Shown here: in pieces, positions 30,661 through 53,965 of the stretch
How the letters are laid out: each line of letters opens with the position of its first letter
Numbering within the stretch: position 1 is the stretch's first letter
Assembly (NCBI RefSeq): GCF_026210795.1
Contig: NC_089433.1
Coordinates: 4,092,001-4,156,000 of the forward strand
Direction: 5' to 3'
DNA length: 64,000 nt
Source: Rhizophagus irregularis
Taxonomy: Eukaryota
Position numbers and translations under genes: made by a program
Notes under the pieces: generated by a model
Databases searched by the model: none
Told to the model about the DNA's origin: nothing
The model's input: only the letters and a program-made list of their open reading frames with translations

Positions 30661-30667
30661 CTACTAC

Positions 30668-31288
30668 GTCGTCGGGCTGGTAGTGTGCCTCGCTACGCTC
30701 CTCCCACCTTGGCCTCGCGGCCTCACAGTACCTACATCCCCCCTCCGTGGGGCAGGTTTACCTGCCACAGTACCATGGTCTGCCACGGTATTTTTCCACT
30801 TATTTTTTTTCTACATTTTTTCTTATATATAACTTACTATGACAACTATGGCAACTATGGCAGACTACTTAAAAACGGAATAAAAACGCGAATAAAGCCG
30901 AAATCAGACAGAATCTCCTGCCATAGTACCTGCCATAGTACGAAAAACCTTATAATAATACTATGGCAGCCTTAGTCAGCCCCTTAGACCCCAAAACCCG
31001 ATTCACGCTATGATTACCCTTTATATACTCACCTAGACCCCCAAGTAACACCCCCTATGTCCTGAACTATGGCAGCCGAACTATGGCAGCTGAACTATGG
31101 CACCCGAATTATGGCACCTGAACTATGGCACCCGAATTATGGCAGCCGAACTATGACCCCAAGTATGACCCCCTATGTCCTGAACTATGGCACCCGAACT
31201 ATGACCATCAAACTATGACCACCGAACTATAACCACTTGCCCCCGTCAGAAAAAATACATTCGGCAATTGAAGATTAGGTAACTATAA
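30668..31288 (+). repeat. Left terminal inverted repeat (621 bp)
   Basis: Reverse complement of 53405-53965; starts GTCGTCGGGCTGGTAG; contains 14-bp GAAYTATGGCASCY repeats. Confidence 0.95.
31266..31275 (+). promoter_or_regulatory. Element-specific upstream motif AATTGAAGAT
   Basis: Identical 10-mer 23-41 nt before ATGs at 31299, 38729, 47757 and 53376; variants before 32189, 48328, 48902, 50849 and 37992. Confidence 0.6.
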
Positions 31289-31823: not shown

Positions 31824-32144
31824 CTAATCTGTCTTTCTCTTTTTTGCTTCCTTAAGGTATTTATCAATACACTGTTTACACGCGTCATCAGCCTCTAAAA
31901 TTTTTTGCCCAAGTTTTTTGCATTGCCGATTATACGCCGTCTGATGTCTTTTAGCCGCGGTTTCTTTTTTCTTCTCCTTGGTTTTCTTTTTGATAACCCA
32001 GTCTATCCCAGTAAAAGTATTCTTATGCATCCCACAAACTACACAGTCACCATGTAAACGATAGCAGCCATTTGTGGTCATATCTTGTATTTCACTAGCA
32101 GTCTCGGTTTCCTTCTTACACTTTAGGCAGTAAAATCGTGTCAT
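31824..32144 (-). CDS. Small basic Zn-ribbon protein (DUF5679-like)
   Basis: MTRFYCLKCKK...GDCVVCG, Lys-rich tail, further CxxC; probable ATG 32144, divergent from the integrase. Confidence 0.7.
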   Translation of the reverse strand: MTRFYCLKCKKETETASEIQDMTTNGCYRLHGDCVVCGMHKNTFTGIDWVIKKKTKEKKKETAAKRHQTAYNRQCKKLGQKILEADDACKQCIDKYLKEAKKRKTD

Positions 32145-32188
32145 CTTAAGATTTGAAGTCCGAAATCTTTCCTTTAATTTGTCGTAAT

Positions 32189-33280
32189 ATGTCGCATTTA
32201 GAGAATTATTACAAATACTACAATCTCTCCGGAGTACCGGCACGAATTCTAAAAGGTGAGGAGCACTACAACCTATACAAAAAGCCCTTAAAGGAAAAGT
32301 CATCAGAGCGTCCACGAGTAGTTGTATGGAAATCAAATGCGACGCATCAGGCAGATCTCGCAGAGATGCCAGTCGACCCCAAAGGATTCCACTATTTCCT
32401 CGTAGTGGTGGAAGTCGCGGGTAAACGAGTCGATGCAGAACCCCTAAAGGATAAGACTGCAAATAGGATTCTAAACGGGTTTGTCAAAATCTACAGAAGA
32501 AATCGTATTAAGCCACCAACACACAGACTGGAGACAGACTCCGGATCAGAATTCACCAATGATCAGGTACGTGATTTTTTCCTGAACAGCCTAGGGGTAA
32601 TGATGAGGTTCGGAGAGCCAGGAAGACACAAACAGCAGTCATATGCCGAACGAGCTATCCAAGCTATTCAAGAACCTCTTCTCAAACGAATGGTGGCACA
32701 GGAGTTGAAGACTGGGGTGACATCCGTGGAATGGTCAGAAGATTTCTGTGATGTAGTTAATAAAATAGATAAACTCTGGCAAAGAAATCCCCCAGACATT
32801 CCGACTGGGTCACCCAAGGTGTCAAAAAAGACGGAACTTCTCTCTGAAGGAACGCGTGTTCGAGTAAAGTTAGATGAACCTATCTCAGTACTCGGGAATA
32901 AACTCCATGGAAAATTTCGTACAGGTGATATAAGATGGAATCCCAATATCCGTGTCATCAAAAAAATGATCCTCTCACCCGAACAGCCTCCTACGTATCT
33001 TCTTGATGGACCACACGGGCGACTAGGTGTATCCAGATGTGCATACACCCGAAAAGAGTTGCAGATTGTTCCAGAAAATGAACATCCCCCACCTAACTCC
33101 GTGATAAGAGGGCAACCCGAAAGATTTGTACCTGAGCGGATACTCCGGCATCGCATCAGGAAGGGTCAAGACCAGTATCTAGTCAAGTGGGAACGATACC
33201 CAGATACCGAAGCCACTTGGGAACCCGCTGACCGGTTGGAGGAGGATGTCCCCGATTTAATCCGCAAGTTTTGGGAATAA
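32189..33280 (+). CDS. Retroviral-like (rve) DDE integrase with C-terminal chromodomain, Maverick type
   Basis: HQADL / ETDSGSEF / YAERAIQ catalytic triad; chromodomain ERILRHR...YLVKWERYPDTEATWEP; first ATG 32189. Confidence 0.92.
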   Translation: MSHLENYYKYYNLSGVPARILKGEEHYNLYKKPLKEKSSERPRVVVWKSNATHQADLAEMPVDPKGFHYFLVVVEVAGKRVDAEPLKDKTANRILNGFVKIYRRNRIKPPTHRLETDSGSEFTNDQVRDFFLNSLGVMMRFGEPGRHKQQSYAERAIQAIQEPLLKRMVAQELKTGVTSVEWSEDFCDVVNKIDKLWQRNPPDIPTGSPKVSKKTELLSEGTRVRVKLDEPISVLGNKLHGKFRTGDIRWNPNIRVIKKMILSPEQPPTYLLDGPHGRLGVSRCAYTRKELQIVPENEHPPPNSVIRGQPERFVPERILRHRIRKGQDQYLVKWERYPDTEATWEPADRLEEDVPDLIRKFWE

Positions 33281-33294
33281 AAAATAAATATTCC

Positions 33295-34026
33295 CTATTT
33301 TTTGTCTCCTCGATTCACGTCAGAAACTATCGGGATAAAACCATTCTTCTCATTACAAGTAAGGGCGATATGTTCACGTGATTCATGGACATCATAATTG
33401 TAACGTTTCAGACACGTCCGGCTCAATCCAATCTCCCTATGCTTGTAATCGCTTAAAACCGCGAGGTCCTCAGTGATAATACAATCAGGGGTTAGTTTGA
33501 TTGACACACCTTTTACCATGCCGAATGTCCTACCAGATCCCGGAGCGCCGGATATGTTATGTGTAATACTCTTGTCGATATCCAACCCTAATTCTTCAGC
33601 GGCTTCTCTCTGAATAAAAGACGCGTTAGCACAAGTGTCTGCTAAACACTGAATTGCTATCCCATTGACCTCCCCATCCAGCGCTAAAAGATCTTTAGTA
33701 TTCTCCAAACGAGCTATGTCAATATCCATCGGGTCATCTTCCCTGATATCCTCTTCTTGTTTTTCCTCAACTAGGTCTTCTGGAATCTCCGTACTTTTAC
33801 GAGCAGACTTTAATTCTTCCCGAAGAATCTCGCGGAGTAATTTCCTAAAATCTGCAGACCTTAATAAACTTAATGAATCATTTTTGGTGACGGCTTTTAT
33901 AAGTGTAGGCTTACTCCTAGTAACCTTCACAGGAATCTTAATAGGAGTCATTTTAACTGATTTTTTTGGAACAGATTTAAGAAGTTTCGAGATACTTACA
34001 CCCTTATCCGAGTTTACTTTTTTTTT
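33295..34026 (-). CDS. Retropepsin-like aspartic protease, -1 frame relative to Gag
   Basis: GEVNGIAIQCLADTCANASFIQREAAEELGL fits the LxDTGAxxSxI region; flap ISGAPG; PMDID motif; no ATG until well inside the ORF; overlaps the gag end at an A9 run (34018-34026). Confidence 0.75.
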   Translation of the reverse strand, partial: KKKVNSDKGVSISKLLKSVPKKSVKMTPIKIPVKVTRSKPTLIKAVTKNDSLSLLRSADFRKLLREILREELKSARKSTEIPEDLVEEKQEEDIREDDPMDIDIARLENTKDLLALDGEVNGIAIQCLADTCANASFIQREAAEELGLDIDKSITHNISGAPGSGRTFGMVKGVSIKLTPDCIITEDLAVLSDYKHREIGLSRTCLKRYNYDVHESREHIALTCNEKNGFIPIVSDVNRGDKK

Positions 34027-35507
34027 GTACTTCGAACCGCACAAATCCGAAAACCACCTTCCTCATCAGGAACAATTTTCAAGTCATCAAAACTCACGGT
34101 ATTAGTATCAATATCCATAGCATCATCATTAAGATCGAGGTTTCTCATTGCTTGGGCTAATTCCAAATCATCGCGTCTATCTTTAGCCTTCTGAAGTCGC
34201 TTTGGAAATCTTTTAGACGTCTCATATCCCATAATAAGATCAATAACATGTTGATCATCCTCACTAGTCCATTCAGGAGCATCAGGGTCATCACCAACAT
34301 CATGATCTACATAACCATCATCCCAATCAGGATCCTGATGATCCTGAACAACGCGTGGCCGTGGCTTCGGCCGAACAGGTTTAATCTGTTGTCTATAGAC
34401 CGGTGGTTTACGAACTGGCTTAGATGCTTGTAATTGTTTAAATTGCGCCTGAAAATTCTTGGTAAGTTCCTCGGCTTGTGCCTTGAGCAATTCTTGTAAT
34501 CGTTTTTGAGTAATAACGTCTGTCGACCTTTGTATTACAGCACCTTCGTGTGGAGTCACGGGATGAGTATAGCCAGCTAATTCCTCTTTTTTAGCCTTTT
34601 CAATACCCTGGCGCCTTTGTAATCTATAGAACATTTCGCCCTTTCGTCGTTCAAGATCACTCAATCTATCGATTAATATATTAAGAGGTGCCACCCCGAT
34701 TCTGGAAGCTTCAATAACATTTTCCGGCAAAAGTCCTCTATAGAACTGGTCAGTAACCATGATTTGATTATATCCTACAATATCCCCAGCCCTCTCAACT
34801 CGCTTATAGTAAGATCGAACAGGTTCACCTTGTTCCTGGTAAAGGTTACTAAATCGTATTTGAAGTCTTTCTTCCACGACGGTTGGAAAATTTGTGCGCA
34901 TATGCATAAATGCTTGATCCAGGAGAATCCCCTGTAAGACTATCGGTTGATTCTGAACAGCAGCATTGAATGGACCTCCATGATCTCCCAACCCATTAAC
35001 GGGTAGATGAGTAGGACGTCCGCTCGCACGCCTCCACTGCTCTTCAACTTTAAAATTTGTTCTAACGATATCAGCGCGTGATGGGAAAAATGCGTCTCCA
35101 ATAGTTACCGCCGCATTAACCCCAACTAGAGAATATGCATGAGCAGCAGATCCAGGCACATAAGTATTAGGATGTAGTCGTCCAGCACCAGCATTTTCAG
35201 GAACAACCAAAGCTCTGAATGCTCGGCGAGTGGCACCGGCTCCACCATTTGCAGCAGCCACTAACCGAATATTCGAGAGTTCCCAATTTTTTCCAGTAAG
35301 TTCCGCATCAAACCACCTCGCCGCTTCATCTCTCATACAGCTACGAAGAACCCCCATCGCTCGCATCCGACCAGGAGGCGCACCGGCATCGTCCAATGGA
35401 TCAATACCAACGGTATTAATATACCCTAAAAAGTTATCAATAAAAAGATTAAGATCTTCATCTTCCCGACCATGAAATATGGGGGCAGCTATACCAACAG
35501 CAGCCAT
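34014..35507 (-). CDS. Ty3/gypsy-like Gag capsid protein with Ala/Gly-rich insertion
   Basis: PIFHGREDED..FIDNF...MRDEAARWF (capsid NTD); LYQEQGEPVRSYYKRV...DQFYRGLLPE (major homology region, CTD); DAMDID; no CCHC knuckle. Confidence 0.75.
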   Translation of the reverse strand: MAAVGIAAPIFHGREDEDLNLFIDNFLGYINTVGIDPLDDAGAPPGRMRAMGVLRSCMRDEAARWFDAELTGKNWELSNIRLVAAANGGAGATRRAFRALVVPENAGAGRLHPNTYVPGSAAHAYSLVGVNAAVTIGDAFFPSRADIVRTNFKVEEQWRRASGRPTHLPVNGLGDHGGPFNAAVQNQPIVLQGILLDQAFMHMRTNFPTVVEERLQIRFSNLYQEQGEPVRSYYKRVERAGDIVGYNQIMVTDQFYRGLLPENVIEASRIGVAPLNILIDRLSDLERRKGEMFYRLQRRQGIEKAKKEELAGYTHPVTPHEGAVIQRSTDVITQKRLQELLKAQAEELTKNFQAQFKQLQASKPVRKPPVYRQQIKPVRPKPRPRVVQDHQDPDWDDGYVDHDVGDDPDAPEWTSEDDQHVIDLIMGYETSKRFPKRLQKAKDRRDDLELAQAMRNLDLNDDAMDIDTNTVSFDDLKIVPDEEGGFRICAVRSTKKK

Positions 35508-36193
35508 ATCGTATTTTGTGGATGGTTGAGAGGATGTGGAGGAGGGTTCAATTGTCTAATCCGAAACCATTGTACTTGGATACGCAGAGCGGCTATTTGT
35601 TGGAAAAGTCGATTCCTAAGACGTCCCAATGTCCGAATTCCAAAAAGAACCCGATTATTGGCATATACAAGCCGATTTCGTGCCGCATCACGCTCGCCTA
35701 TAGCTCTATTACGTTCACCTATAGCTCTATTACGTTCTCCTCTCATAAGATTATATTGCTGCTGAAAACGACGATTAGTCGTCCGCATACCACCAAACTC
35801 ACGTTCCAATTCAGCCAAATTAGCTTCTAAACCAGTAATAGTATCTTGTACGTTATTTAACTCATCTTGTGTAAGACCTAACAAACCCGTTTGAACCTCG
35901 AGTTCATCTTGTAATTCATCGCGTTCTTTTCGAGATCGATCGCGTTCCGCTTTTAATATATCGTGTTCTTCGTATGTTTCTCTACAGCGATGAATTAATA
36001 AATTAAGAGCATGTTTAAGACGATGGTTGGCATTTTGTACATCTCGATTAACAACCATGCGATCACTGACAGTTAAAAAATCTGTTAGATCCTTAATTAC
36101 CGCAACTAATGGTATATTATTCATATCACGCAAATCCCTAGGAGGCGGTCCAGTAGGCTCTGAAGGAGTATAAATTGCAATTGGTGTCGACAT
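35489..36193 (-). CDS. Coiled-coil protein, probably the N-terminal part of the Gag gene
   Basis: Heptad-rich, with GERNRAI repeats; overlaps the gag ATG; one extra A in the run at 35514-35517 fuses it in frame (PQKYDMAAVG). Confidence 0.7.
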   Translation of the reverse strand: MSTPIAIYTPSEPTGPPPRDLRDMNNIPLVAVIKDLTDFLTVSDRMVVNRDVQNANHRLKHALNLLIHRCRETYEEHDILKAERDRSRKERDELQDELEVQTGLLGLTQDELNNVQDTITGLEANLAELEREFGGMRTTNRRFQQQYNLMRGERNRAIGERNRAIGERDAARNRLVYANNRVLFGIRTLGRLRNRLFQQIAALRIQVQWFRIRQLNPPPHPLNHPQNTIWLLLV

Positions 36194-36224
36194 CGTATTT
36201 AAACTAAATTAGAATAAAATTCAA

Positions 36225-37448
36225 ATGGATCTTTATGTATACAATTTGGACGAGTACACGACCGACTCGAGACAGGGTAATGAGTTTGCCCCATCATGGC
36301 CTTTCCGTCTTGCCGTAGCAGGAAGTTCTGATTCGGGTAAAACAACTATGATCATTAATTTGTTAATGGGAGACAAGAAGGCAAAGGAGGATGGCGAAAG
36401 GTACATATTATGTGATGCGGTAATTCTAGTTGGCAGATACCTCGATGAACTGAAGTGGGCAGTCGTACGTGAATTTTTCAAAGAAGAAGAAATTCCGTTT
36501 ACCGCAGTATCCCATAGTGAGATTCCAAATGTTAAGGACTTCAACTCCACCCAGGCTACTGTGGTAATCTTCGAGGATTTGATGGATGCGCCTAAAAAAA
36601 CCCAGGATCTCATCACTGGATTTTTTACACACGGGCGTCATAAAAATATCTCGTGTATCTATGTGGCCCAAAGATTCTTTACCATTCCCAAGGCTATTCG
36701 TGAAAATGTGAATTATATTTCCCTATATGGAGGTCACGGAAGTTTGACCGATACTAAGAGGATCATCCGCCAGTATACAGAAGAATCGGAGTCACTAGCT
36801 CCAGTAATCGATGACCTTACTCTACAACGCGAATTTATAGTATTTGATCTTAGAAGATCCAAGAGCGATCCGTTATCCATTCGGGTTAGATGGGATACTA
36901 GTCTCAGTTCGATCACCGATCAATCTCAGTTCGATCCTAGTTCGATCTCAGTTCAATCTCCGTTCGATCCGAGTTTGAATCCAGTTCGATCCCCGTTCGA
37001 TCCGAGTTTGAACCCAGTTCGATCGAAGTTTAGTCCTTATGGCCAGAAGGCCGTAGCTGAAGCAAAAAAGTCCTCCCAGCTAATCGAGTTTGCTCGGGAA
37101 TATCCATTGCCTAAAGAGAGAAAACACCTTCTCGTATCTGGTGTTATAGCTAAGAACGCAGATACCTGGATTAAGTACGTCTTTCGGGAAGCCTACGGAC
37201 TATCTGGTAAGACCCTGGGATCAGACTTCCAAAACTTCTTAGCGAAAGTACGGGATAGGACCACGAAGACTGAAATTCCAAAACCTGAGACCGTAAAGGA
37301 GTTATTCTCCCGGTATGAAACCCTGAAGTCTAGTCACCCTTTGGATAATAAAAAAATAATAGAAGGCATTGGAGTCCTTTTACAGATCTTTTCTAAGGGC
37401 CACATGGACCGTCGAGCATTACGAGTAGGGATCAATAGTATTTTGTAA
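36225..37448 (+). CDS. A32-like (FtsK/HerA) DNA-packaging ATPase with C-terminal extension
   Basis: Walker A AVAGSSDSGKTT, Walker B VVIFEDL, GRHKNISCIYVAQ, AIRENVNY; 11-aa repeats SPFDPSLNPVR (~36925-37025). Confidence 0.88.
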   Translation: MDLYVYNLDEYTTDSRQGNEFAPSWPFRLAVAGSSDSGKTTMIINLLMGDKKAKEDGERYILCDAVILVGRYLDELKWAVVREFFKEEEIPFTAVSHSEIPNVKDFNSTQATVVIFEDLMDAPKKTQDLITGFFTHGRHKNISCIYVAQRFFTIPKAIRENVNYISLYGGHGSLTDTKRIIRQYTEESESLAPVIDDLTLQREFIVFDLRRSKSDPLSIRVRWDTSLSSITDQSQFDPSSISVQSPFDPSLNPVRSPFDPSLNPVRSKFSPYGQKAVAEAKKSSQLIEFAREYPLPKERKHLLVSGVIAKNADTWIKYVFREAYGLSGKTLGSDFQNFLAKVRDRTTKTEIPKPETVKELFSRYETLKSSHPLDNKKIIEGIGVLLQIFSKGHMDRRALRVGINSIL

Positions 37449-38729: not shown

Positions 38730-39078
38730 GTCTTTTTTCTGTACGTGTCTACATACCTAATTGTTATCTTCAATTTACAATAACCAAGTGACATCGTCAT
38801 CAGTCCTTGTCACAGCAAATATGGCATAGTAGCCTTTATCTTTATTAAATTTATTTAACGAACTTACAAAAATAAAATAAAATTTTCAAAGTACAAAAAA
38901 GAAAAATAAAATTAACTAAAAACAAAACTATATAGTCTCCAAAACAGTAATAAAGCTATAAAATAATTCAAAAAGAAAAATCGCATAACACTAAAACTAT
39001 CCTGATCCCCCGCCTAAATATATTTCAACCTAAGAAGAGGCAACTATGCAAACAAACCAACGAACAATGCGCCCATTA

Positions 39079-42000
39079 TTAAAATCGACACACCACCCTG
39101 CTAAAGCTGTTAGTAAGTTGCACCGTTAGACGACCCATAAAACCCGAATAGTGATTAAACCAAGGCAAACCATATTTCATCGAGTTCAATAAATAATCAA
39201 CGTCGGAGTCACGTGCGGCGTCGGAAAGGGTCGGAGGAGGTAAAGTTGAGAAAGGTAAGTACGTGGACTTTGGCAAATTTGAAGGCCGAGAAAGTTTGAG
39301 TTTATGAGTAATATTCATCGCGTCTTCCCATTTAGATTTATCATAGGAGCGCGGTAACCAAATTCGTTTTCTGATCTTCTGGATAAAGTGATTGTGGATA
39401 GCAGAAATAACCTTCATCGCAGAGTTACGTGGAATAGAAAGTTCTTCAAAAAATTCGACAAAGGATTTCGGAAGGCAGCCACAGACGAGACTATATGAAG
39501 TCCAATTTGAAGAAGAAAAGGACCAACAAGGAAGAGATTTAAATTTGTTAATAATTAAAGAGGGATCTTTCTTGACGAGATCACCAGCTTCCTGAAGTTT
39601 GTTGATAAAATGATGTTGGTAGGAGAGGAGAATCTGTTCCATAGCGATTCGTCTACATTTGCACATAAACAAGTGCATGAAATCTTCCTTGGAGTCGAGA
39701 CATGAACGACACAATAAGATGTCGATATATAAGTCCGGGCGAATTCTTTTAAGATGTTCCAAAGTAGGTAAATCTTCCAAAAAGAGTTTGAATTTGAAGG
39801 TGCGATGAGAGGAAGCATGAGCACGAGTAAAAGAAGCGTCATGCTGAGGATCCGAATTTAAAGAGAACCAGGTAAGATCCCAATCAATCACGAAATCTGA
39901 AGTAGAAGATAAAGCAATGGTAAAGTTAAACCGCGATAAATGCGTTAATCTATGCATCCACAGCATTTGCGAATATTGCTTAAATAGGCGTCGTGGGTTA
40001 GATTCGCATAAAATATCATCATATTTTAATAAGAAATCGTGAGGAGATACTTGATCCAGATCAGAAAGAAGAATCGCTGAAGAAGAGGTATGCGCAGAGT
40101 TGGCCAAAGAGTCCGCGTAGTCGTTGTAGAAATTACCAGAGTGACCTTTCACTTTGACAGCCGTGACGGACAAAAATTTTGATGAAATGAGACGTTCAAT
40201 AATAGCCCAGAGTTCAAAATTAGTGGTCTTGTAATAAAGCCTACTGTTGGAATAAGAAAAGGTAGCACATAGACGAAGACCATCTATGGCAGATTGAGAG
40301 TCAGTATGAATAGTGACCGTTGAAAAGGGAGGAGTGACTGTAAGAGCAGCATGTATAGCGGCAATTTCAGCTCTTGTAGAAGAAGGCCAATTACGAATGA
40401 TTCCATGAGCGTGAGCAGCGATAGATTGGAAAAAACCAGCGCCATCGAGAACTTGAACCCAAGACCAACCCATAGAAACATCAGGAGTGCCAAGGTTAAT
40501 TAAAGAACCATCGGTATAAAAACAATAATGATTATCAGGAGGAGTCACTAACGGTGAGGCAGCAAAAGCAAGAGGAGCAACCGGACCCAAAAAGGAAGAA
40601 GGAGAAGGAGAAGGAAGAGTAACCACATCTTCAAGTGAAAAATTAGGTTGAACGTCCAAACGACCATAATAGGATCTTACAGATTCGTCAAGGTCCGCCC
40701 AAGTAAAAGGAGAAGTAATAGTGGTGGTGTCATGTCTAATACGCTCCTGCGTGGTTGGGAGAATTAAAGATCTAAGAGGAGAAAGTTTTGGGATGATACA
40801 TAGAGGAGTAACATCTGTTGGATTGCTTTTAGTATGGGTAACCGGTACATGTTTAGAACAACCAGGACAAGGAGTGAGCGTGATAACATCATTAGGTCGA
40901 GTCACACAATCAGAGGTCCAATGGACAATCTTGCAGGAATATTGTTGTTTACTAAGTTGTTTTCCAAAAAGAGGAGAGCCATCTTCATCCAAAGTCACGA
41001 TCCATTTCATGGATTTTCTAGAGGAACCAAAAGCTGGAACCAAGTCAATGTTTGAAGGAATAGCATCGGAAGAGAATTGATCCAAGAGTAGAGAATTGGA
41101 ATTTGGGACAGTGACACATTGGTGAATGTCGCTGAACCATTTGTGCGGGAGGACTCGATGACCTTTCCTACTTGATAAATTGGACAAATAAACATTCCAA
41201 GTGATCATATGGGTTCCATGAGGCGTAATAAATTGAGATAGGTAATAGAGTTGCAAACATCTTAGACGTCGGAAGTAAGATATAAAAATTTTTGGAGTCA
41301 TCACTTCAAATAAAGGCGTATGACCGTTGGATATGGTGAGGTCAGACAAGGTTGACAGTCGAGAACGTGACAACTTGAAAGGAGTGGTGGTCAGGAGAGC
41401 AATAGTGCAAGCGATATAATCCTGTTTAAAAGCAAAAAGTTTAGACCATATAGTCCAATCTTTAACTAACAAAGGGGAAATAGGAATCAAAAAGGAAAAT
41501 TGAATTAAACGTAATCTATATAAAAACAAAATTTTCATAAAGGAAGAAGAAGAATTAGCTAACAAAAATAGATTAGTTAAATGTGTTTGTGATTGGTGAA
41601 AAAATAAATTAATCAATCCCAAGCCTTGAGATAAAAATAAAATGGAATCCGGGAGTACACGTGAAAAATTGGCCTTGTGTTTAACCAAGGAACGGATACT
41701 GCTGGTTGCCGAGGCACATTCAGATTCAGACAGGTGAGTGACTTGCATGCGATATTCCAATTTCGGAATAAGGACGGTGTTGTGTAAATAAACTACTTGT
41801 TTAGCAGATAGTTTGGCAGGGCGAACGGTGGCAGCGAAAGAGTTACATTCTCTAGCAACTTGATTTCTGACAAAATCGCGAGATCTGGCGACATTGAACC
41901 AGACGCCCAAGAAGCGGAAGGAGCTATTCATGGAAATGGGCACAATAGAAATGGAAGGAACTTCGTTCAATCCAGATAATTGCAAGTCAAACACTACTGG

Positions 42001-44700
42001 AGAAGGCGAGGAAACTGAAGAGGAAGGCAACGAGTTAGTAATTAAAACATATTTGTTGTGATTAGCGGAAGTATTATTGATTTGATAAAATTCTTCCGTA
42101 ATAGAGAGCATCGATTCCATTCCAGATTTGGATGATGATATTAAAGTGGAATCATCCATAAAGACCAAGTTGTTGATTCGTAATCCATCTGAACTTGTCG
42201 CAGCCAAGGGATTAGATAAAGAAGGAGCATGAAGTATATATGGATCCATCATTTCATTCTTAAGAACAGTCAATAAAGGGTCTATATATATAACCCATAG
42301 TAAAGGAGAGATAACTTCGCCTTGATCTATACCAATACGAACGCGGTAAGGAGGTGTAATTCCATGAGCAGTAAAAACGCAATTAGAGCGTTTCATGAAA
42401 AAGGATAAAATAAACTTGGTGGCAGAAGCAGGAAGTTTAATGCGTTCTAAAGCAAAACGCAACATCTTGAGATCAACCGAGTCGAAAGCCTTCGAAATAT
42501 CTTGTGAAAGGATCCAAAGCGGCGATTTGTTGACTTGAGCATCATGAATAATAGATTCCAGGACGACAATAGGGTCGCGACAGGAACCACCAGGGAGACC
42601 GGCGAAGTTTCCTCCTTTGAGAACTTCATTCGAAGCCAAAATGGAGGCGAGACGATTATAAAAGAGCTTGACCAAAGATTTTCTAATTACTTCAAGTAAA
42701 GTAATAGGTCTTGTATTTTTGAGTTGACATTTCCATTCGTGAGGTTTAGGGATAGGGAAAACCATAGCTTGACGCCATAAATCAGGAATATCTGCAATGC
42801 GGAAGCATGATTGGACCAGGATTAGGACTAAAGCAGAAGTATTGGAACCTAGATGTTTAAGCATCTCATAAGTAATCATAGAGGGACCAGGAGCTTTGTC
42901 GTTAGGCATAGAAGAGACCGTAGACAACCATTCTTTAAGAGTAGGAGGATCCAATAGAGAATTATAAATAGAAGAATCTACATCGTCCATAGGGCGATAA
43001 GCAGAAGACCATCTTTCCGGAAGAGCGGAAATGTTATCAGGAGGAGATGATTTAATAGGGACGGAGTTCTGGAAGTGGTTGATGACAGCGTCATCAATAT
43101 CATGTGGGTCCGTTAAAAGTTTTGGCTGTGTGGGATGGTCAATAAAGACACGATCTAAAGTAATACGGCGTCGAGTCCGTGAGAGAGCAGAATTAATGAA
43201 TGAGGAAATATCTGTTTCAAAATTGTTGTCCCTATCAGCCAATTTGGCACGAATGGAAGAATCTTGAAAGTCTTTTTCTTTGAGAAGAAGGAGGCCATAA
43301 AGGGCACTAGAAATAGTCTTTAAGGAATCTAATAAAGAACTAAAATCGTCTTGCCTACATGTGGATAAAGAAGTAGGTAAAGTAGGGGGAGAGGGAAAAA
43401 TCTTCTTATAAAGATGAAGAATTTTTTGAAGTCGAATAAAATGAGTGGACCAAGTACGTTCATATCTATTATAATACGTGAAAGGATATTTTCGCAATAA
43501 GCGTATCGAATGCAAAAGTCGGCTAAGGAAACGATAGTGTTGAGTTAAGGCTTCCAAATCCTTGGGCACCGTAGGCGTGTGTTGATTTCCAACAAGAACA
43601 GACGGAAGGGAGGCATTAGCAGCTTTCACAATACGCGAATGTAAATATTCGCATTGTTGATTGATGTGCCATGTTGAGAAGGTTGAAGGGAGAACGTCGC
43701 ATAGGGAGTCAGTGTGAGTAGAAAAAGATTCCCATTGTTGAGTAGTGACTGAATCAAATTTGAATATTCGGCGAGTTCGACGTTGAAGTTGTTTGGCACG
43801 AGCAACCTTGATGGACGCAACCAAAAGTGAATCGTCAAAGTACGTGATGATAGGATTATGGTCAGAAGAGCAGGTATCTTGGGCGTCAAATATGTAAGAA
43901 GTAAGAGCAAAGCCTTTAAGCATGGGGCAAGACCACACATAGTCTATACGAGTGACTTGATCATCACGGTGAAAGGTGCCTAAGGAATCAGAAGCGTTAA
44001 CAGGAATGGTTTCTTCATAGCCATGTGATAAAAGATGATGTAACAAACGATAAGCTCGTTGAAAAGCAATAGCAGGGCGATTAAAATAAATAGGGTAATA
44101 AGTGTCAAGGTGCATATTAAAATCACCACAAATGGCGTGATAAAAATTTTGTTGTTTGGTTTGCACCAGAAGTTGTAAAAGAAGGTCAATAGTTTCCGAT
44201 CGTAATTTAGAATCAGAAATAGGGGGAATGTATATTACAAAAATGCGAAATTTAACGTTGCCTTTAAAATAAAGATCAACAGATAAAATACGCGAGGAAT
44301 GTGAAATAAAATCTTGTACATGAGAAGCAAGGGATTTTTCAATAAAAAGGGAAACGCCACCAGTAGATTTGACTTGTTTAGTTTTATCTATGTCAGAGGA
44401 AAAGACAGTATAATTAGGAAGGCGTTTAGATAAAAAATGGATTTGTTTGGGGGATAAATGGGTATCTACGATACCACCAAATGAAATATGTTTAAGATTG
44501 AAAAAGTTTGAAATCTGTTCCATTTTAACTTGACTATTTTGGCGAAGACCATTAACATTAAAGGATGAAATAGTAAAAGAATTGGGGATAGGGGATAAAT
44601 TCGAAGTAGTAAATAAAGATTCATGTTCAGAAAAATTAAAAATATCTTCAGAGTTGGGCGGGTTTCGAACAAACGTATCATAATCAAAATTGTCAGTCAT
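39079..44700 (-). CDS. LINE ORF2: APE endonuclease, reverse transcriptase, RNase H, CCHC
   Basis: SFNVNG, GDFN, RIDY, SDHNP; KAPGP, RPITLL, DISKAFD, QGEVISP, FMDD, FLG; YTDGS, RAEI, TDSQ, KVKGH, ADSLA; CRSC..H..C; 1873 aa uninterrupted. Confidence 0.95.
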   Translation of the reverse strand: MTDNFDYDTFVRNPPNSEDIFNFSEHESLFTTSNLSPIPNSFTISSFNVNGLRQNSQVKMEQISNFFNLKHISFGGIVDTHLSPKQIHFLSKRLPNYTVFSSDIDKTKQVKSTGGVSLFIEKSLASHVQDFISHSSRILSVDLYFKGNVKFRIFVIYIPPISDSKLRSETIDLLLQLLVQTKQQNFYHAICGDFNMHLDTYYPIYFNRPAIAFQRAYRLLHHLLSHGYEETIPVNASDSLGTFHRDDQVTRIDYVWSCPMLKGFALTSYIFDAQDTCSSDHNPIITYFDDSLLVASIKVARAKQLQRRTRRIFKFDSVTTQQWESFSTHTDSLCDVLPSTFSTWHINQQCEYLHSRIVKAANASLPSVLVGNQHTPTVPKDLEALTQHYRFLSRLLHSIRLLRKYPFTYYNRYERTWSTHFIRLQKILHLYKKIFPSPPTLPTSLSTCRQDDFSSLLDSLKTISSALYGLLLLKEKDFQDSSIRAKLADRDNNFETDISSFINSALSRTRRRITLDRVFIDHPTQPKLLTDPHDIDDAVINHFQNSVPIKSSPPDNISALPERWSSAYRPMDDVDSSIYNSLLDPPTLKEWLSTVSSMPNDKAPGPSMITYEMLKHLGSNTSALVLILVQSCFRIADIPDLWRQAMVFPIPKPHEWKCQLKNTRPITLLEVIRKSLVKLFYNRLASILASNEVLKGGNFAGLPGGSCRDPIVVLESIIHDAQVNKSPLWILSQDISKAFDSVDLKMLRFALERIKLPASATKFILSFFMKRSNCVFTAHGITPPYRVRIGIDQGEVISPLLWVIYIDPLLTVLKNEMMDPYILHAPSLSNPLAATSSDGLRINNLVFMDDSTLISSSKSGMESMLSITEEFYQINNTSANHNKYVLITNSLPSSSVSSPSPVVFDLQLSGLNEVPSISIVPISMNSSFRFLGVWFNVARSRDFVRNQVARECNSFAATVRPAKLSAKQVVYLHNTVLIPKLEYRMQVTHLSESECASATSSIRSLVKHKANFSRVLPDSILFLSQGLGLINLFFHQSQTHLTNLFLLANSSSSFMKILFLYRLRLIQFSFLIPISPLLVKDWTIWSKLFAFKQDYIACTIALLTTTPFKLSRSRLSTLSDLTISNGHTPLFEVMTPKIFISYFRRLRCLQLYYLSQFITPHGTHMITWNVYLSNLSSRKGHRVLPHKWFSDIHQCVTVPNSNSLLLDQFSSDAIPSNIDLVPAFGSSRKSMKWIVTLDEDGSPLFGKQLSKQQYSCKIVHWTSDCVTRPNDVITLTPCPGCSKHVPVTHTKSNPTDVTPLCIIPKLSPLRSLILPTTQERIRHDTTTITSPFTWADLDESVRSYYGRLDVQPNFSLEDVVTLPSPSPSSFLGPVAPLAFAASPLVTPPDNHYCFYTDGSLINLGTPDVSMGWSWVQVLDGAGFFQSIAAHAHGIIRNWPSSTRAEIAAIHAALTVTPPFSTVTIHTDSQSAIDGLRLCATFSYSNSRLYYKTTNFELWAIIERLISSKFLSVTAVKVKGHSGNFYNDYADSLANSAHTSSSAILLSDLDQVSPHDFLLKYDDILCESNPRRLFKQYSQMLWMHRLTHLSRFNFTIALSSTSDFVIDWDLTWFSLNSDPQHDASFTRAHASSHRTFKFKLFLEDLPTLEHLKRIRPDLYIDILLCRSCLDSKEDFMHLFMCKCRRIAMEQILLSYQHHFINKLQEAGDLVKKDPSLIINKFKSLPCWSFSSSNWTSYSLVCGCLPKSFVEFFEELSIPRNSAMKVISAIHNHFIQKIRKRIWLPRSYDKSKWEDAMNITHKLKLSRPSNLPKSTYLPFSTLPPPTLSDAARDSDVDYLLNSMKYGLPWFNHYSGFMGRLTVQLTNSFSRVVCRF

Positions 44701-44747
44701 TAGGACACAATGATAATTATAAACGGGGAGGAGAATTAAGAAGTCAA

Positions 44748-46878
44748 TTATTGCGAAGGAGCAGAAGCTCGATCGGAGGGAGAACCACCAAGAGAAGCAA
44801 TAAAACCTTGAATGGAACCAGTGAGCGATTGTAGAGTATCTTTAATCGCTTTTTGATCTTGGATAACCGAGTTCAATTCGTCTTGCGGGGAAGGGGTATA
44901 AGTGGATGTGAGAGCTGAGTGCGGAACAATGGTAGGTGCAGATTTGGGGGGAGTGGATTTCTTAGGACCAGAAGACAAAGGAGCATTAGGATGTGGGATT
45001 AAGGTACCAGTAATTTCAGGAGGGTCTTCTTCCATCCGATCAGGTTCAGAATTGACAACAGGAGCGGAAGGAGGATTGATGCCTAAATGGGCTTCAATAG
45101 CAGATAGCCGTTGATTGTTAAGTTCAAGATGGGAGATGCGGGATTCCACACGAGCAACATCTTGTTGAAGGGTTTGCAATACGTTAAGTATCTTAAGGGC
45201 AGCCTCAAGAGCATTAGAAGAATTCGGATCCGAGAGCGGAGCACGAGCATTGGACGAAAAAGAAACAGATCTATCTTTGCCTTTTCGATTATTGGAAGGC
45301 GTGCGTCCATAAGCAGTTGAGGAGGAGTTAACAGGACCAGAGGAGGAGGGTATAGTATTGTTAGAGTTATTATTATTATTATTAGGGCGGTTAGAGTGTG
45401 AATTCGGACGTTGAGCAGAGGCAGAACGATCTCGAGATTTAGAGCGAGAGCGAGACCTAGAATTATTACGTGGAGATCTTTGTTGAGCAGGTCTTTGGCC
45501 AATATTAAAACGGTCTTTAAGGGCGGCAACAGGATCACGTGTACGTGAGCGTCCACGACGTAGATTGAGCGGGCAAGAGGTAGGAGCACAGCCGAGTTTA
45601 CCACATCGGTGGCAAAGAGCTTTTGAATCGTTGGAAGAACCCCACCGAAGAGTACGACCTTGGAATCCGATTGTTTGTTCCATAGCGGCATCCATTGTCG
45701 CTTGTGAATTGAAGGTAACATAAGCCCATGGTTTAGGTTTATATGAGTTTAAGGAAAGAGGAATATTAATAGCTTTGGCTCCATGTTCTTTAACTAATGG
45801 AGCGAGATGGATATCTTTAGTGTTAGCAGGGAGTCCAGAAAGGACAGCAACAAATTCACGACGAGCAGCTTTTTGATCCACAGAATAGTGACAGGGAGTA
45901 ACACGCAAACAAGTGGAGAAACAATAGACTGCCCATTGGGTGGTGAAACGGGCGATGGCATCGGCATGATCATAGACGATGCGGGCTTGTTGCATCTTAG
46001 CACCTTTCCTTGAATAGAGATGGAGGGAGAGCAAATTGCCAAATTTTTTAAAGTAGGATTGTAGTTGAGGTTTCGTGATGAAGAACGGTATATCGGTGAC
46101 TTGGATAGCTCGGAGATCTTCATCAGATCGGAGCTGTTTGGGATCGTACAAGTGGAATTGAAGGTCCAGAAATTCAGAGTGCGTACTACCAACACACAAG
46201 TCACGAGCCTCCGCAGTGTGAAAATGAATGATAAGACGTTTAGCGTCCCCTGAACCAGTCATACGAGCTCGACCGGTATATGATTCATAAGTTTCTAAGA
46301 ATAGATTATTAACGGCATCAATGATTGCCTTATTAGTTTTAAGTTTCTCAAGAGTTTGGGGAGCGGAGTTGGGCGCAGCCGCAGCCAGAAAATCCTGACG
46401 ATTAATGGTAATGGTGGGGAGGGATCGACAGCCTGATCGGGCGATGTACCATCATTTACGTCCATATTAAGGGACGCGTTAGGGATGAGTTATTTTCTTT
46501 GTTTCTTGGTGCATGAATAGACGCGTTAGCTCCAGAGGACGCGTCTTGGCCAGGCGCAGTGGGCGCAGCAGAATTAATCAGGGCAGATGCTTGAGTATTT
46601 TCTAGGGGAGTGCTGCGGGAATTATTTTGTTGAGGAATAGCGGTCGAAGTTGAACCAACTAATCCACCGTCAGCCAGCGCGTCGGCAACGAAATCTTCAT
46701 AGTCTTCATCCATGGAGTCTTTTGTAATGATACGGGAACGTTTTTGGGAAGTGTTATCACTATTGGAACCAGAGTTGTCAGAGAGTTGTTTTTTATTATT
46801 TTTCTTTTCTTGACGAGCAGCCTTATTACTATTAGGATTAAAGCTGCCGCCACCTCTTTTAGCAAAGTTTCTAGACAT
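44748..46878 (-). CDS. LINE ORF1 (RRM-like domains, Cys knuckle, coiled coil), two single-base shifts near 5' end
   Basis: IQVTDIPF..YFKKFG, WAYVTF, CHRCGKLGC..C; joins ATG 46878 if one base is added to the G runs at 46482-46484 and 46416-46419. Confidence 0.8.
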
Positions 46879-47364
46879 GTTAAAAGGTATGAGTTGGGTA
46901 AAATATAAGAGTTGTTAGTACATCAGTCCTTGTCACGAAACACGAGGATACCTGATGATGAGGTTACATGGTCATCAGTCCTTGTCACAAAACACGAGGA
47001 TACCTGATGAATAAGTTATTGGATTATTGGCCTAAAAAGCATTCATGGAAAAACCGTGGAATTTTTTACAGTACAGTGTATAAAAAAAGTGCTAAACTTT
47101 GAGATCGGGACACGATGTCTCGATCTAATAATTTCGATGTCATGTGACTTCATGCGGGTACGTAGATCATTTCCTTATTGGGCGATACCCGTTCCACAAA
47201 AAATCGATTTTGGTAAAAATGCGTTTGGAATCTTGTGTAACATAAATTTCCCTTTTCGGTAATTCGGGATTACGCGGTAATGCCGGCCGGATCTAAATAA
47301 TATGACTCTGCAGGGTAATTCCTACGAAAGTCAAGTACAAAATGCTTACTTCTGTTGAGTCCAT

Positions 47365-47757
47365 TCATACCACTCCCAGTCCCCAAGGATCGCCTCCCCA
47401 TCTATGTTCACTTAATGCATGCTCTATGGTTTCCCTCTCTTGGGGGTCCACGACCATCCCATTCCTAAGCATTTTCTCCATAATATAAAGCTGATCCTCG
47501 GTGAGGCGGTCTATCCATCTTTTATAGAAGTCGTTTACATCTTCAAATGTTATCCAGTCAACATTCCCTTTTTCGAATGGCTTTCCAAGAGCTCGGACAT
47601 ACCCGATCATAGTGGCATAATTTTTCCACCTCTTATATGCCTCTTGACGAACTTCCTGCCACCACACTCTATCTACCTTACTCACTGCAATAAGGTCAGT
47701 ATCCGGGATCTTTGCGACAATGCGTTTGACTATTTCTACTGGTAATCGGTCCAACAT
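47365..47757 (-). CDS. F-box protein
   Basis: MLDRLPVEIVKRIVAKIPDTDLIAVSKVDRVW matches the F-box consensus LPxEIxxxI...L..VS.V.+.W. Confidence 0.8.
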   Translation of the reverse strand: MLDRLPVEIVKRIVAKIPDTDLIAVSKVDRVWWQEVRQEAYKRWKNYATMIGYVRALGKPFEKGNVDWITFEDVNDFYKRWIDRLTEDQLYIMEKMLRNGMVVDPQERETIEHALSEHRWGGDPWGLGVV

Positions 47758-48995: not shown

Positions 48996-50849
48996 TCATG
49001 TCCAGATAACTTTGTTCGCATTTTTCACATGGCAGTATCCCGCGGTTTCAAACTTGAAAGTCTTTAGAGTCGTATCTGCATTCTCTGAACAAGTGAAAAG
49101 CGCGGGGCTATCTGGCTGTTCTTCTAAAATAAATCCGTCTGTATGGATACGTCGTACTTTATCCTTGTATGGTTGAATTGCCTCAGATGTGATTTTGCGA
49201 CCACGTGCTAATAAGAATGGGGCGATCCTGGGATACTCACCTTTGAAGGGATTACCCGGGTTTGTAAACTGGAATCGCCACTGGTCGGATCCTACTGGTA
49301 TGATAGAGTCGAGTGTATGGCCCTCTGGAAATGTAAATGGGTCTGTTTGATCTGTGGTGAGTGTCTTATAATTACGCTTCCTCTGGCATAATGCTCCTCA
49401 TAATGTGTTGAGGACTCGCTTTGCCACGCGGCCAGCTACGCCACCCTGGTTTTTAATTTTGAAGAGGAAGTATACATACTCACCGAATATTACAGTTCCA
49501 GGAATTCTCGCTTCTCTATCATATATCAATGCATTTGGCTTCCCATCCTGTATTAACTGTATATTGAGACCAAGTTTTTTTGCTCGTTGTAAGTCGATGA
49601 ATGTATAGATTCCCCTTTTATTCTGTCGGAAGAGAATATTATTCCCACTTACCTTGGCACGGAATAATCCATACAAGGCATAACCCCTGTGGTCAACAAA
49701 GTTATTAAGTGTCTGGAATTTACCCCGTCTGATTGGAAAGTTCGCGTTCGATTGTTGGATACTCGGGTATAAACTTGTTGCGTCGTACTGTCTTCCATAG
49801 CCCTTCCACTCATTATCTGCCCAGATTAATCCTCCCATCATTGCATCACTTAACCACTCTGCTTCTATCGGGTCAAGAGGATCATTGGCTGGAATCCCTA
49901 CACTTAATCGTTCGAATAACCAGAGAGCCATTCTTTTGTAAGACCAGTTATGGTATGATAAGTCGATTCCTAAACCGAACTTCTTTGTAGTCTGTAAAAA
50001 GACATCCCGCTCCTCGTGGATTCTCTGATATGCTTCTTCAAGAGTTTCATATATTCCCGTTTTACGGTTTTTCTCAACAGAGATAAAGGAACTCTTGGAA
50101 TTCTTAGTTTTTTGAAACTGCGCAATTGTGCAAGACTTAACTGTTTTGCCGTTGTATATTGTGACTACATTGTTTACTCCATCTTCATGATACACAATGG
50201 GCAGATTACGCTTCCTATCTAATTTACTGGGGTGGAGTCTTCCGGGATTTAACGCGAGGGAGTAATGACCCTCAGACAGGATGAGAGTCGCACGTCTATC
50301 GGACTTACTCTTAGAGATTCGGGTAATGTCCCCCACAATATTAATTGTGAGACTTCCTGCGAGTTGTTCAACCTTGTCCATGCATGAAACTGGGATGGGA
50401 GCATCGCGATTGAGACCTAATGCCTTTTTGATATACTCAGGCTTTTCGATTGACTTTGGCATTTTAGAGAATGTGCCGTAGATATATTTCAGGCATTCAT
50501 ACAGGCAATCATTTAGCTCCCCGTTGCAACCTCCTGCGGCTGGTGGACTATCTCTCGCATAAATTATGAATTGTTCAAAATAATCAGGGTCTGCGTCATC
50601 CAGTAGTTGTGCTTCATCATAATGGTCTAATAGTGAAAAGAGGCTGGCTGGTTGGTTTCCTGATGTCCATCCACTGGGTTTCCAGTTTTCATAGGGAAGT
50701 AGGATCTGGAACTTTCTATCTGGAAATCGCGCCTGAAGAGTCTGACCGAGTCTGGTGATAGCTCCTCTGGAAAAGCGGGCACCAGAATATTGAAGTTCCT
50801 TGATGTCAGGTCATGTTGGTAAAGTGCGGGCGATTCTTGAGTATTGCAT
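48996..50849 (-). pseudogene. Compact family-B DNA polymerase (617 codons) with two in-frame TGA stops
   Basis: One frame from ATG 50849 to TGA 48996; MMGG, motif A YDATSLYPS, motif B KRVLNTL*GAL, motif C RIHTDG; stops at 50811-50813 and 49398-49400. Confidence 0.85.
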
Positions 50850-50932: not shown

Positions 50933-53376
50933 TTACAATATGTCGTTGATAACGCCCTCAGTATCCTCTTCGTTCCAGTCATCGATGATTCCATTGGCGG
51001 CCTCCCATTCACGTTCCATATCAGTTTTTGGACGTTCCTCGGGGATCTCTCGCGCTTTTCCCTTATCTGCCCTCATAGTTTCATACCCAGAGGGGGTGGG
51101 AATAATCTTGGCATTACGATTCTCCTTGTATACTCTTATTAAATCCGCGAGTTCTTTACGGCTAGGTGTTTTAGATAAGTATCCATTATATTCGATCCAG
51201 TCCTTGAAGCGGTCTACTACTTCCATAAGGTAGTACTGGTACTCATCCTCAATACGCGTTGTGGGACATTCCTCTACTTCAAACGCGAGTATTTCCCAGT
51301 CATAGTCATCTGACGCATCTTGATACTTGGCCCATAATTCCTTACCTGTATTGTAGAGATCATTGAAGACCTGGTCCTTTAAATTTTTAACCCACGGTTT
51401 GCGATCCCATCGGTGTCTTTCATGCCAAGCCCAGTGCGCTCGAGTGCCTTCCTTTGGTTCAGGATCCCGGTCGACTTCTGGTTCTGTGTCAGGTTCTGGG
51501 ATAAGTTGCTCTTTGGGAGCCGGTACTACTACAGGTTCTGTAGAAAATTTAGAATCTGCGAGGGATTCAGATTTTGTGGAAGATTCTGCGGGTTGTTGCT
51601 CAAGAACTGGGTCCACGGTTGTAGAATCCGAGTCTGATAACAAGTCGTCTAAAACGTCATAGTCATCTGGCTCGGGGGTGGGTTCTTCTTGGTCAGGTTC
51701 CTCGTCAGATAGATAACAATCTGAGAAGCTATCTATAGGTTCATCGGTGTTTGACTCACTAGTGTTTACATCGGGATCCGGTTGTTCTTCCCTTAACCCT
51801 TGTGGACGTTCTTTTAAGTGGTCAGGCTTGGGTGGAAGCGGTGGAGGAGTCTTGCGAATTACAGGTGCGGGTTTTTCTTCAGCGGGTTCGGGTTTTTCCT
51901 CTGTGGGTTCGGGTTTTTTCTCAGCGGGTTTATCCTCTGCAGGTTTCTCGGCAACTAACTCTACTTCCTCTACTGGTGCTTCCTGTACGTCTTGTACATC
52001 TTGGATTACTTTACTAAAATTCTCCGCGATTTTTGCTTTATCTAGTATGTAATAGTTTATTCGGGTACCTGAGCGGCTTACACGCATTTTGGGGGCGAAT
52101 TGTTTAATCTCCATACCGAATTTATTGTCACTTAGTGTTTTGTTTTCACCCTTCTCACTGCACCAGTTTTGGTAAGTACTATAGAAATTTGTACACGGGA
52201 TTTCAAGTGTATCACAATTGTCGGGCCACATTATTTCAAGGTAATATTGTATAAAACGCTGGGGATTCGGGATACTTGCTTCGATTAACTCCCGTTTCAT
52301 TTGAATATCAGGAATAGATCGGGGATTGAAGCCAGTTAAGTCTCGGCTAAGTAGATAGGACATGAAGGAACTGGCTGTATCCAGATTTTCTAATACTTTT
52401 ACGAGAGAACTGAAGTATTCTCTATTGCCCTTATATTTGGCTGAGACGTTGAGAGCTACAAATCTTTCATCCCCCATTTCTATACGGATTGGCATAGCAT
52501 GATTACTGAGGATCATGTAGCCAGCAAAGTCATCAATAACCTTCACATCTATCCCCTTTTCCTCGATAGAGATGTAAGGCTCGGTGATTAAACTCTTGAG
52601 TCGGTTGTTTGCCCCATGCCATTCCTTGCCTGACATATCGCATTCATTGAGGATGATAAGTTTTTTGGCATGAACAGCCGCATTGAACCTTCCCATTACA
52701 TCTTCAAGACGCGTAGTGGAAAGGAAGTTTTCACGGCCGAGAATACGTTCTCTGATAAAATCGGTTAAGATATTCTTACCACATCTGGGGGGACTGCGCA
52801 TGATAATTGCTGTACCGGGTTTTTTGTCTGGATTTTGAATAAGGAATGCGAGCCAGTTGAGGATGTATGTGGTTAACTGCTTGTCCTCCGCACACCATAC
52901 CTCATGAACGTGTCGGATGATTGGATTAACTAGATTTAGTTTGATGCGCTCAGCGGGTTGGGCCCTGAAACCTAGGAAGAGATTGAAGAATTCAGGATTA
53001 TACTTTGGTGCGTTTGGGGGATAAGGCATGAAGTTTACATCTGTATAACAGATCTTTGCAATTGAGGCTTGGAGAAGAAGATCCTTTAATTTGGTGGATG
53101 TGGTCGCATCACTGTCTTCTCCGGTATCTGACCGAATAATTACCTTGTGCTTAGTAGAAATCCCCTTGAGATCTGCGGCGAACTCGAAGTATATACTTCC
53201 ATTGTAAGCCTTCTTTTTCTAATCCACATGCCGGATTTTGTGGTGATGAAAGCCACAGAAGCCGAGATTGCTGAATTGACGCTTTCTTTCGTGTGTGTAC
53301 CTACACATTTTTTAAGAAGGTCATCGTAGAAGAAACGGTTGTTGGGGTTAAAGATTGCTGGAACTTGAGCGGCCAT
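50933..53376 (-). CDS. SF3/D5-like helicase with long acidic/Pro-rich tail; one frameshift near 53215
   Basis: FNLFLGF, YILNWLAFLIQNP, Walker A SPPRCGKN, Walker B IILNE, motif C ILSNH, RFVAL; adding one base to T5 (53214-53218) joins ATG 53376. Confidence 0.85.
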
Positions 53377-53404: not shown

Positions 53405-53965
53405 TTATAGTTACCTAATCTTCAATTGCCGAATGTATTTTTTCTGACGGGGGCAAGTGGTTATAGTTCGGTGGTCATAGTTTGATGGTCATAATTCGGG
53501 TGCCATAGTTCAGGTGCCATAATTCGGGTGCCATAGTTCAGCTGCCATAGTTCGGCTGCCATAGTTCAGGACATAGGGGGTCATACTTGGGGGGTCTAGG
53601 TGAGTATATAAAGGGTAATCATAGCGTGAATCAGGTTTTGGGGTCTAAGGGGCTGACTAAGGCTGCCATAGTATTATTATAAGGTTTTTCGTACTATGGC
53701 AGGTACTATGGCAGGAGATTCTGTCTGATTTCGGCTTTATTCGCGTTTTTATTCCGTTTTTAAGTAGTCTGCCATAGTTGCCATAGTTGTCATAGTAAGT
53801 TATATATAAGAAAAAATGTAGAAAAAAAAATAAGTGGAAAAATACCGTGGCAGACCATGGTACTGTGGCAGGTAAACCTGCACCACGGAGGGGGGATGTA
53901 GGTACTGTGAGGCCGCGAGGCCGAGGTGGGAGGAGCATAGCGAGGCACACTACCAGCCCGACGAC
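53405..53965 (-). repeat. Right terminal inverted repeat (561 bp)
   Basis: Ends CCAGCCCGACGAC; about 60 bp fewer internal repeats than the left TIR. Confidence 0.95.

Follow-up and report, generated by a model that had tools for sequence, protein, structure and literature searches.

The window, by which we mean the whole stretch of 64,000 nucleotides of Rhizophagus irregularis DNA that was analysed, contains a mobile element of 23.3 kb (positions 30668-53965; about 15 kb without a nested LINE), whose GC content is ~42% as compared with ~25% in the host DNA. The element ends in terminal inverted repeats (TIRs) that match over 507 bp at 96.6% identity and over a further 89 bp at 100%, and thus displays the long TIRs and the 5-bp flanking repeat, here ACTAC, that are characteristic of Mavericks/Polintons. 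Tandem repeats with a unit of ~14 nt are found inside both TIRs (31038-31235 and 53459-53593). The insertion lies within a host tandem array of about 10 genes encoding BACK and TLDc domains, some of which are broken (2581-26317 and 58781-62568, plus strand).

Table 1. Features of the element and of the Gag-protease junction (positions in the window; a point in the strand column marks a feature without strand)
Feature	Position	Strand	Remarks
Left TIR	30668..31288	.	repeat pair; ACTAC outside at 30663-30667
DUF5679 ORF	31824-32150	-	E 6.5e-15; syntenic in locus L002
rve integrase with chromodomain	32150..33280	+	retroviral-type; convergent with protease
-1-frame protease ORF	33295..34062	-	96-codon linker, MDID spacer, putative aspartic protease domain
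Second invariant 13-nt block (codons KLLK)	33975..33987	-	6/6 in alignment; 26 nt 3' of the stop
Recoding site C-A9-G-TAA	34014..34027	-	two overlapping heptamers, Gag stop immediately after
Gag-like ORF	34014..35507	-	497 aa from ATG 35507; retro-type capsid predicted from clusters and model
Coiled-coil ORF	35489..36208	-	overlaps Gag ATG; second -1 offset
A32-like packaging ATPase	36213..37448	+	Pox_A32, E 5.9e-11
2-cysteine adaptor ORF	38145-38756	-	E 0.001
Nested LINE	38814..46920	-	~8.1 kb, approximate ends; between direct repeats
Weak F-box ORF	47365-47766	-	E 0.019
Protein-primed PolB-like gene	48996..50849	-	ESM Atlas clusters; two in-frame TGA
D5-like superfamily 3 helicase/primase	50933..53218	-	DUF5906, E 4e-19; Pox_D5; PHROG primases
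Right TIR	53405..53965	.	ACTAC outside at 53966-53970

The genes of the element are listed in Table 1. The polymerase gene was assigned through ESM Atlas clusters (scores 0.96-0.97), 18-26% of whose members carry DNA_pol_B_2, and has no Pfam, PDB-sequence or informative PHROG match. At the sequence level, no Pfam or PHROG match to a double-jelly-roll capsid, a penton or a cysteine protease was found in the element, the remaining small ORFs of which encode 133-239 aa. No reverse transcriptase (RT) of the element's own was recognised; the one RT that was found is that of the nested LINE, which comprises an RRM-containing ORF1 and an endonuclease-RT ORF2 of 1920 aa, is apparently intact and is separate from the Gag-protease cassette. 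Since the polymerase carries two in-frame stops, the copy in the window is inactive; with the LINE inserted into it as well, it is dead.

The cassette was compared with five JGI metagenome loci which, together with the window, form the aligned DNA set (n=6, about 3 lineages). The protease and the integrase converge at 4 of the 5 metagenome loci, the fifth of which ends inside the protease, and locus L002 carries the same two small genes past the cassette, so that the cassette is integral to the element rather than part of an inserted LTR element. A nested LTR retrotransposon was considered and rejected, since the window and 4 of the 5 loci have the convergent integrase, and no pol with RT or RNase H, beyond the end of the protease ORF (33295 in the window). 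No LTR pair was present among the repeat families listed (20 of at least 60).

Gag-like and protease reading frames

The Gag ORF (34014-35555, minus strand) encodes a capsid region (aa ~5-310) followed by a coiled coil, an acidic spacer and the C-terminus STKKK*; no CCHC knuckle was seen in the Gag of the window's clade. The Gag region matches Retrotrans_gag clusters with scores of 0.93-0.94, and in relatives the Pfam Retrotrans_gag profile is matched at sub-threshold level only. An AlphaFold model built from 14 sequences has a mean pLDDT of 62, with values of about 75-95 in the CA helices and a low-confidence insertion between the two capsid lobes. The best 37 structure matches to this model are all capsids of retroviruses and retrotransposons or of Arc, PEG10 and PNMA, that is, retro-type or domesticated capsids, headed by Rous sarcoma virus (RSV) CA (Z 10.1, 132 aligned residues, rmsd 4.5); the RSV C-terminal domain gave Z 9.8 over 71 aligned residues with an rmsd of 1.8. 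The best Foldseek match was weak (E 5.7e-3), and all Foldseek matches listed were of the CA type. The upstream ORF is thus predicted, from the model, to encode a retro-type Gag/capsid with CA N- and C-terminal helical domains. The initial annotation, which had described a Gag-protease cassette residing in a DNA element, agrees with these cluster and capsid-fold matches as well as with the TIRs, the ACTAC repeat, the pPolB-like gene, the rve integrase and the A32 ATPase, which together identify the host of the cassette, as judged from its sequence, as a TIR-bounded Maverick/Polinton-like DNA element.

A coiled-coil ORF precedes Gag and overlaps it (35489-35555, minus strand), stopping 5 codons past the Gag ATG, and contigs cross this overlap ungapped. 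In ten distant relatives, the coiled coil and Gag form one continuous frame, and six of these carry a CCHC knuckle. Because no slippery heptamer is present in the overlap, this second offset may be handled by initiation at Gag's own ATG, by re-initiation or by a 95-nt intron.

The protease ORF (33295-34062, minus strand) matches Pfam Asp_protease_2 with an E-value of 6.5e-8, above the cut-off. Its triad is DTC instead of DTG (approximately 33631-33639, minus strand), and in 20 distant protease ORFs the corresponding motif is DSC in 14, DSG in 4 and absent in 2. Since the triad is DTC here and DSC or DSG in relatives, the proteolytic activity is putative. In the alternation between DTC/DSC and DSG, the residue that changes is the triad glycine, an unusual but tolerated substitution. 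In locus L004, the protease is interrupted by a stop.

Sequence and conservation of the junction

On the minus strand the slip site reads AGT ACA AAA AAA AAG TAA (within 34033-34014), with a C at 34027, nine As at 34026-34018, a G at 34017 and the Gag stop at 34016-34014; the protease ORF runs through the same stretch in the -1 frame (...KYKKKVNSDK). The initial annotation had reported exactly this arrangement, a -1 offset at A9-G-stop with A_AAA_AAG/A_AAA_AAA heptamers, and the letters and ORF frames confirm it: A_AAA_AAA starts in frame at 34026 and A_AAA_AAG at 34023, with the stop adjoining. Five in-frame XXX-YYY-Z sites are present in the Gag ORF, and only from the two in the A run does a -1 frame extend far (243 and 242 aa, as opposed to 2-31 aa elsewhere in this ORF). 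The element contains 267 generic heptamer sites on both strands, so a heptamer by itself is weak evidence; it is conservation rather than the presence of a heptamer that lifts the slip site above chance.

A tenth A, which would turn the junction into a plain in-frame fusion, had been named as the alternative. The length of the run was checked in Logan contigs from 4 runs of 4 studies (4 of 24 runs listed), one of which may be the window's own source; the summed contig depth over the site in these runs ranges from 383 to 85,378. Among the indel variants listed (12 of 16, at a 5% threshold), there is no +1 variant (A10) at 34018, A9 is the majority form in the contigs of all 4 studies, and one contig covers 33728-34095 ungapped. 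A -2 variant (A7), which produces an in-frame fusion, occurs in 1 of the 4 runs, at a depth of 300 of 3287 (9%). The initial annotation had cautioned that the window has many one-base homopolymer shortfalls; in a noisy alignment of host paralogues, 3 of 36 gaps that break the frame consist of one base within a run of at least 4. Because the contigs show no +1 form among the variants listed and all 5 metagenome loci have exactly nine As and a -1 protease, it is very unlikely that A9 is an assembly error, and the ten-A alternative finds no support.

All 5 metagenome loci show C-A9-G-TA(A/G) as well, and at each of them the protease lies in -1. The junction block CAAAAAAAAAGTA is unchanged in all six sequences next to a variable Gag tail (ICAVRSTKKK, YVVRAGAKKK), and the 13 nt up to the TA of the stop are invariant, the stop itself being TAA or TAG. 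These sequences are well diverged: Gag identity between L002 and the window is 34% (125 of 363 residues), and dS between the two clades, in the 20 codons past the site, is 0.95-2.6. In the -1 frame, the same codon has been kept in only 17 of 45 amino-acid-invariant columns, and in 6 of 14 columns of K, E or Q, so that an A run would not be expected to stay invariant by default.

From the site, 96-106 codons (96 in the window) lead up to the first Met that all six sequences share. In 6/6 sequences, only the -1 frame runs through this linker uninterrupted, the other frames containing 5-16 stops; its dN/dS is 0.13-0.39 in all 15 pairs, showing purifying selection, and each of the 23 internal gaps in the alignment near the site has a length divisible by 3. 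No Met is common to all six linkers; the first shared one, that of the MDID motif, follows the linker in each of them. Given the purifying selection and the lack of a shared Met, the linker is likely entered from upstream; on this sequence evidence, access to the -1 frame must be gained within the A run, ahead of it, or through splicing.

At the protein level, lysine-rich endings were counted in 27 further Gags that carry the C-terminal spacer motif, many of them metagenome ORF calls read as protein and not as DNA; the other 136 of 163 proteins do not enter this count, having no such motif in the last 50 residues (fragments, fused models or members of a distant knuckle-bearing clade). KK occurs within the last 6 residues in 24 of the 27, compared to 1.4% of background windows, and the 17 full-length Gags of the set are 27-93% identical. 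The three misses are a truncated model (P0133), a protease-side motif match (P0146) and a chance motif (P0205). Endings such as KKK, KKR and KKN would fit A-rich heptamers at the DNA level. One JGI ORF call from the distant knuckle-bearing clade, P0189, is a continuous Gag-protease fusion, and P0131 continues past the junction as though one A were missing. The closest named proteins are from Rhizophagus irregularis, of which P0001 and P0002 (99%) may represent the window locus itself; for Gag, named relatives come from Entrophospora, Diversispora and Acaulospora, and a scan of viral_contigs with the protease and with the Gag alignment yielded no relative. Several Gags are mosaic, with similar C-terminal tails on different capsid halves (P0126/P0121; P0123 and the window; the set P0121-P0138), which suggests, from sequence comparison, recombination between subfamilies.

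The site had also been described as canonical, which in eukaryotes would call for a stem-loop or pseudoknot 5-9 nt downstream. This description is not supported: folding without pseudoknots revealed no stem-loop 3' of the site beyond shuffled controls in six sequences (z -0.9 to +1.3), and no fold is conserved among them, the covariation term of the consensus fold (+1.31) being a penalty and the consensus hairpin being disrupted in 2 of 6 sequences at four of seven pairs. Besides, A_AAA_AAG is named as the strong site of E. coli, and it is A_AAA_AAC, not A_AAA_AAG, that is listed among the sites most shifty for mammalian ribosomes (PMC5009743). The downstream region does contain the second invariant block, with four wobble positions fixed in 6/6 sequences; no conserved pairing was found for it, and it is a candidate for an unstructured stimulator or a protein-binding site.

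Routes from Gag to the protease

Because the slip site and the -1 offset are conserved across relatives, they have very likely been selected, and we consider it highly probable that the site is an expression signal of some kind. The interpretation given in the initial annotation is in part supported. The site is real and conserved and, by its sequence record, very likely functional. As to how the signal works, low-level, unassisted -1 ribosomal frameshifting at A9-G-stop is the best reading, and one that we regard as moderately probable. It is supported by the conserved site and offset, by the selection on the linker, by the proper tandem heptamer, by retroelement precedent, by the lysine-run endings across the family and by the public gene models listed, 107 of 120 of which get from Gag to the protease by 8 different skips and none by reading straight on. 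Against it speak the in-frame forms (the A7 variant in 1 of 4 runs and the P0189 fusion), P0131, the negative search for a stimulatory structure, the bacterial association of A_AAA_AAG, the scant sliding on A9 in E. coli extract, the run of exactly nine As, which suits polymerase slippage too, and the DTC triad.

If the nine As were instead a site of transcriptional slippage, RNA polymerase would add an A in the run in some transcripts, and the A10 mRNA would be translated normally into Gag-protease, with the same products as ribosomal slippage but by another step. This explanation, which we hold to be rather unlikely, is in keeping with a run of exactly nine As in 6/6 sequences, with the absence of an RNA stimulator and with the productive use of runs of nine As or Ts in Thermus dnaX (PMC5009743); however, two overlapping heptamers likewise explain all nine As, the cited precedent is bacterial and does not concern RNA polymerase II, and distant endings such as FKKK* or SKKK*, seen as protein only, need not contain nine As. 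Alternative splicing, by which the stop would be taken out and the protease fused to Gag, as public gene models have it, is less probable still. Of 120 gene models listed among 188 matches, 107 bridge the break and none is a straight read-through, and the region offers 61 frame-joining GT..AG pairs, one of them weak but kept in 6/6 sequences (GTTCGA..AAG, 101-134 nt) and three kept in 5/6, including one that opens at the G just past the A run. Yet the bridging models use 8 different joins, their commonest donor GT is present in 2/6 sequences and the acceptor AG in 4/6, the would-be intron is open in the -1 frame with gaps only in multiples of three, and splicing leaves both the A9 run and the KK endings unexplained. 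At least 107 public Rhizophagus gene models, which cross the break with inconsistent introns, are probably mis-annotated.

Two further explanations do away with a recoding event and appear very improbable to us. The protease could be made independently from the downstream Met of MDID or from a transcript of its own, the overlap being incidental; that Met is present in 6/6 sequences, and 4 of 20 distant protease ORF calls open with a similar ME(S/N)KP. This is countered by the ~100 codons upstream of MDID, which are under purifying selection and share no Met, by the starts of the 20 distant calls, which lie anywhere between 0 and 149 aa ahead of the motif, and by the recurrence of the same motif at the end of Gag, which makes it look like a repeated spacer. 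Equally improbable is a non-functional frameshift lesion or homopolymer error amplified together with dead copies, the functional form being the in-frame fusion. The decay of the window copy, the stop in the L004 protease and the known in-frame forms (A7, P0189) are what this would lead one to expect, but it is already largely refuted by the identical run length and offset in 6/6 sequences across 34% Gag identity, by the KK endings of 24 of 27 further Gags and by the A9 majority in 4 studies.

Under ribosomal frameshifting, tandem Lys-tRNAs would slip one base back on A_AAA_AAA or A_AAA_AAG in a small share of ribosomes, yielding much Gag capsid and little Gag-protease fusion. The slip would probably be helped by a pause at the adjoining stop rather than by RNA structure; an umbravirus -1 site dependent on a nearby stop has been described (PMC5009743). 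Its efficiency is expected to be low, since no downstream fold is found and A_AAA_AAG is a strong site in E. coli; in an E. coli cell-free system, A9 yielded little sliding product (PMC4363877). The fusion would carry the protease into the Gag assembly, where Gag would be cleaved; such protease-driven particle maturation is proposed by analogy with retroelement biology. The dead copy in the window would have inherited the signal from active ancestors.

In a wider and more tentative scenario, which we think possible but less than likely, the Mavericks of arbuscular mycorrhizal fungi swapped the jelly-roll virion module for a retrotransposon Gag-protease cassette, retained the recoding control of that cassette throughout the family and use the A32 ATPase to package their linear DNA into a retro-type capsid matured by the protease. 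If true, a DNA virus-like element would reside inside a retroviral shell. Control of the Gag to Gag-protease ratio that is kept in deeply diverged copies would indirectly indicate that Gag is working machinery and not cargo, which bears on the use of a retroviral capsid by an RT-less element and on how Glomerales Mavericks move. The slip site would, moreover, be a compact recoding signal without structure.

Comparison with known elements

The arrangement resembles gag-pro/pol of retroviruses and LTR retrotransposons in that an A-rich heptamer stands between a CA-fold Gag and a -1-frame aspartic protease; A_AAA_AAC is the MMTV-type representative of such heptamers. It differs from them in that no 3' stem was found and the stop directly follows the heptamer, and in that there are no RT or LTRs, the integrase is on the opposite strand and, in the window's clade, the zinc knuckle is missing. 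The slip site would work like a retroviral gag-pro switch, yet no canonical stimulator was found. The gag-pro order with a protease in -1 agrees with what retroelements use, pol being in the -1 frame in 28 of 51 animal retroelements (PMC5009743). The site also contains both motifs known from dnaX, where A_AAA_AAG acts on the ribosome in E. coli and A9 on transcription in Thermus; unlike it, dnaX is bacterial and has its own tRNA set and stimulators. In adintoviruses, Hexon-Adenain -1 fusions have been put forward by software prediction only (PMC11071296); these are similar as capsid-protease fusions by a predicted -1 shift in a Polinton-type genome, and dissimilar in capsid fold and protease class.

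A Gag-bearing element has probably already been sketched in print. The Fig. 5 legend of Starrett et al. 2021 mentions a MELD-related element with a retroviral Gag, a retropepsin and an S3H helicase (PMC8502044; bioRxiv 10.1101/697771), and this element, as compared by its legend, is probably of the same kind. In the accessible text of that study, section 3.4 does not discuss the Gag-retropepsin cassette, and the word 'frameshift' occurs once in the preprint, for another locus, and is absent from one supplementary file. Within the full-text literature covered, which does not extend to subscription journals, Repbase reports and bioRxiv supplements, no published report of a Gag-protease A9 junction was found, and the available portions of PMC5751038 and 10.1101/2025.04.19.649669 add nothing on the junction.

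Mavericks have been reported to be expanded only in Glomerales (PMC11952901) and to have recently expanded in R. irregularis (PMC8647823); in the text available for these papers, 'gag' is absent from the former and appears once, in a filter list, in the latter. The present element shares with the Glomerales Mavericks the TIRs, the 5-bp flanking repeat, pPolB, the rve-chromo integrase and the A32 ATPase, and differs from them in its Gag-aspartic protease cassette and the recoding site within it; neither a jelly-roll capsid nor a cysteine protease was recognised. What is new relative to the known Glomerales Mavericks, with no earlier report found in the literature covered, is the conserved A9-G-stop recoding site between Gag and the protease.
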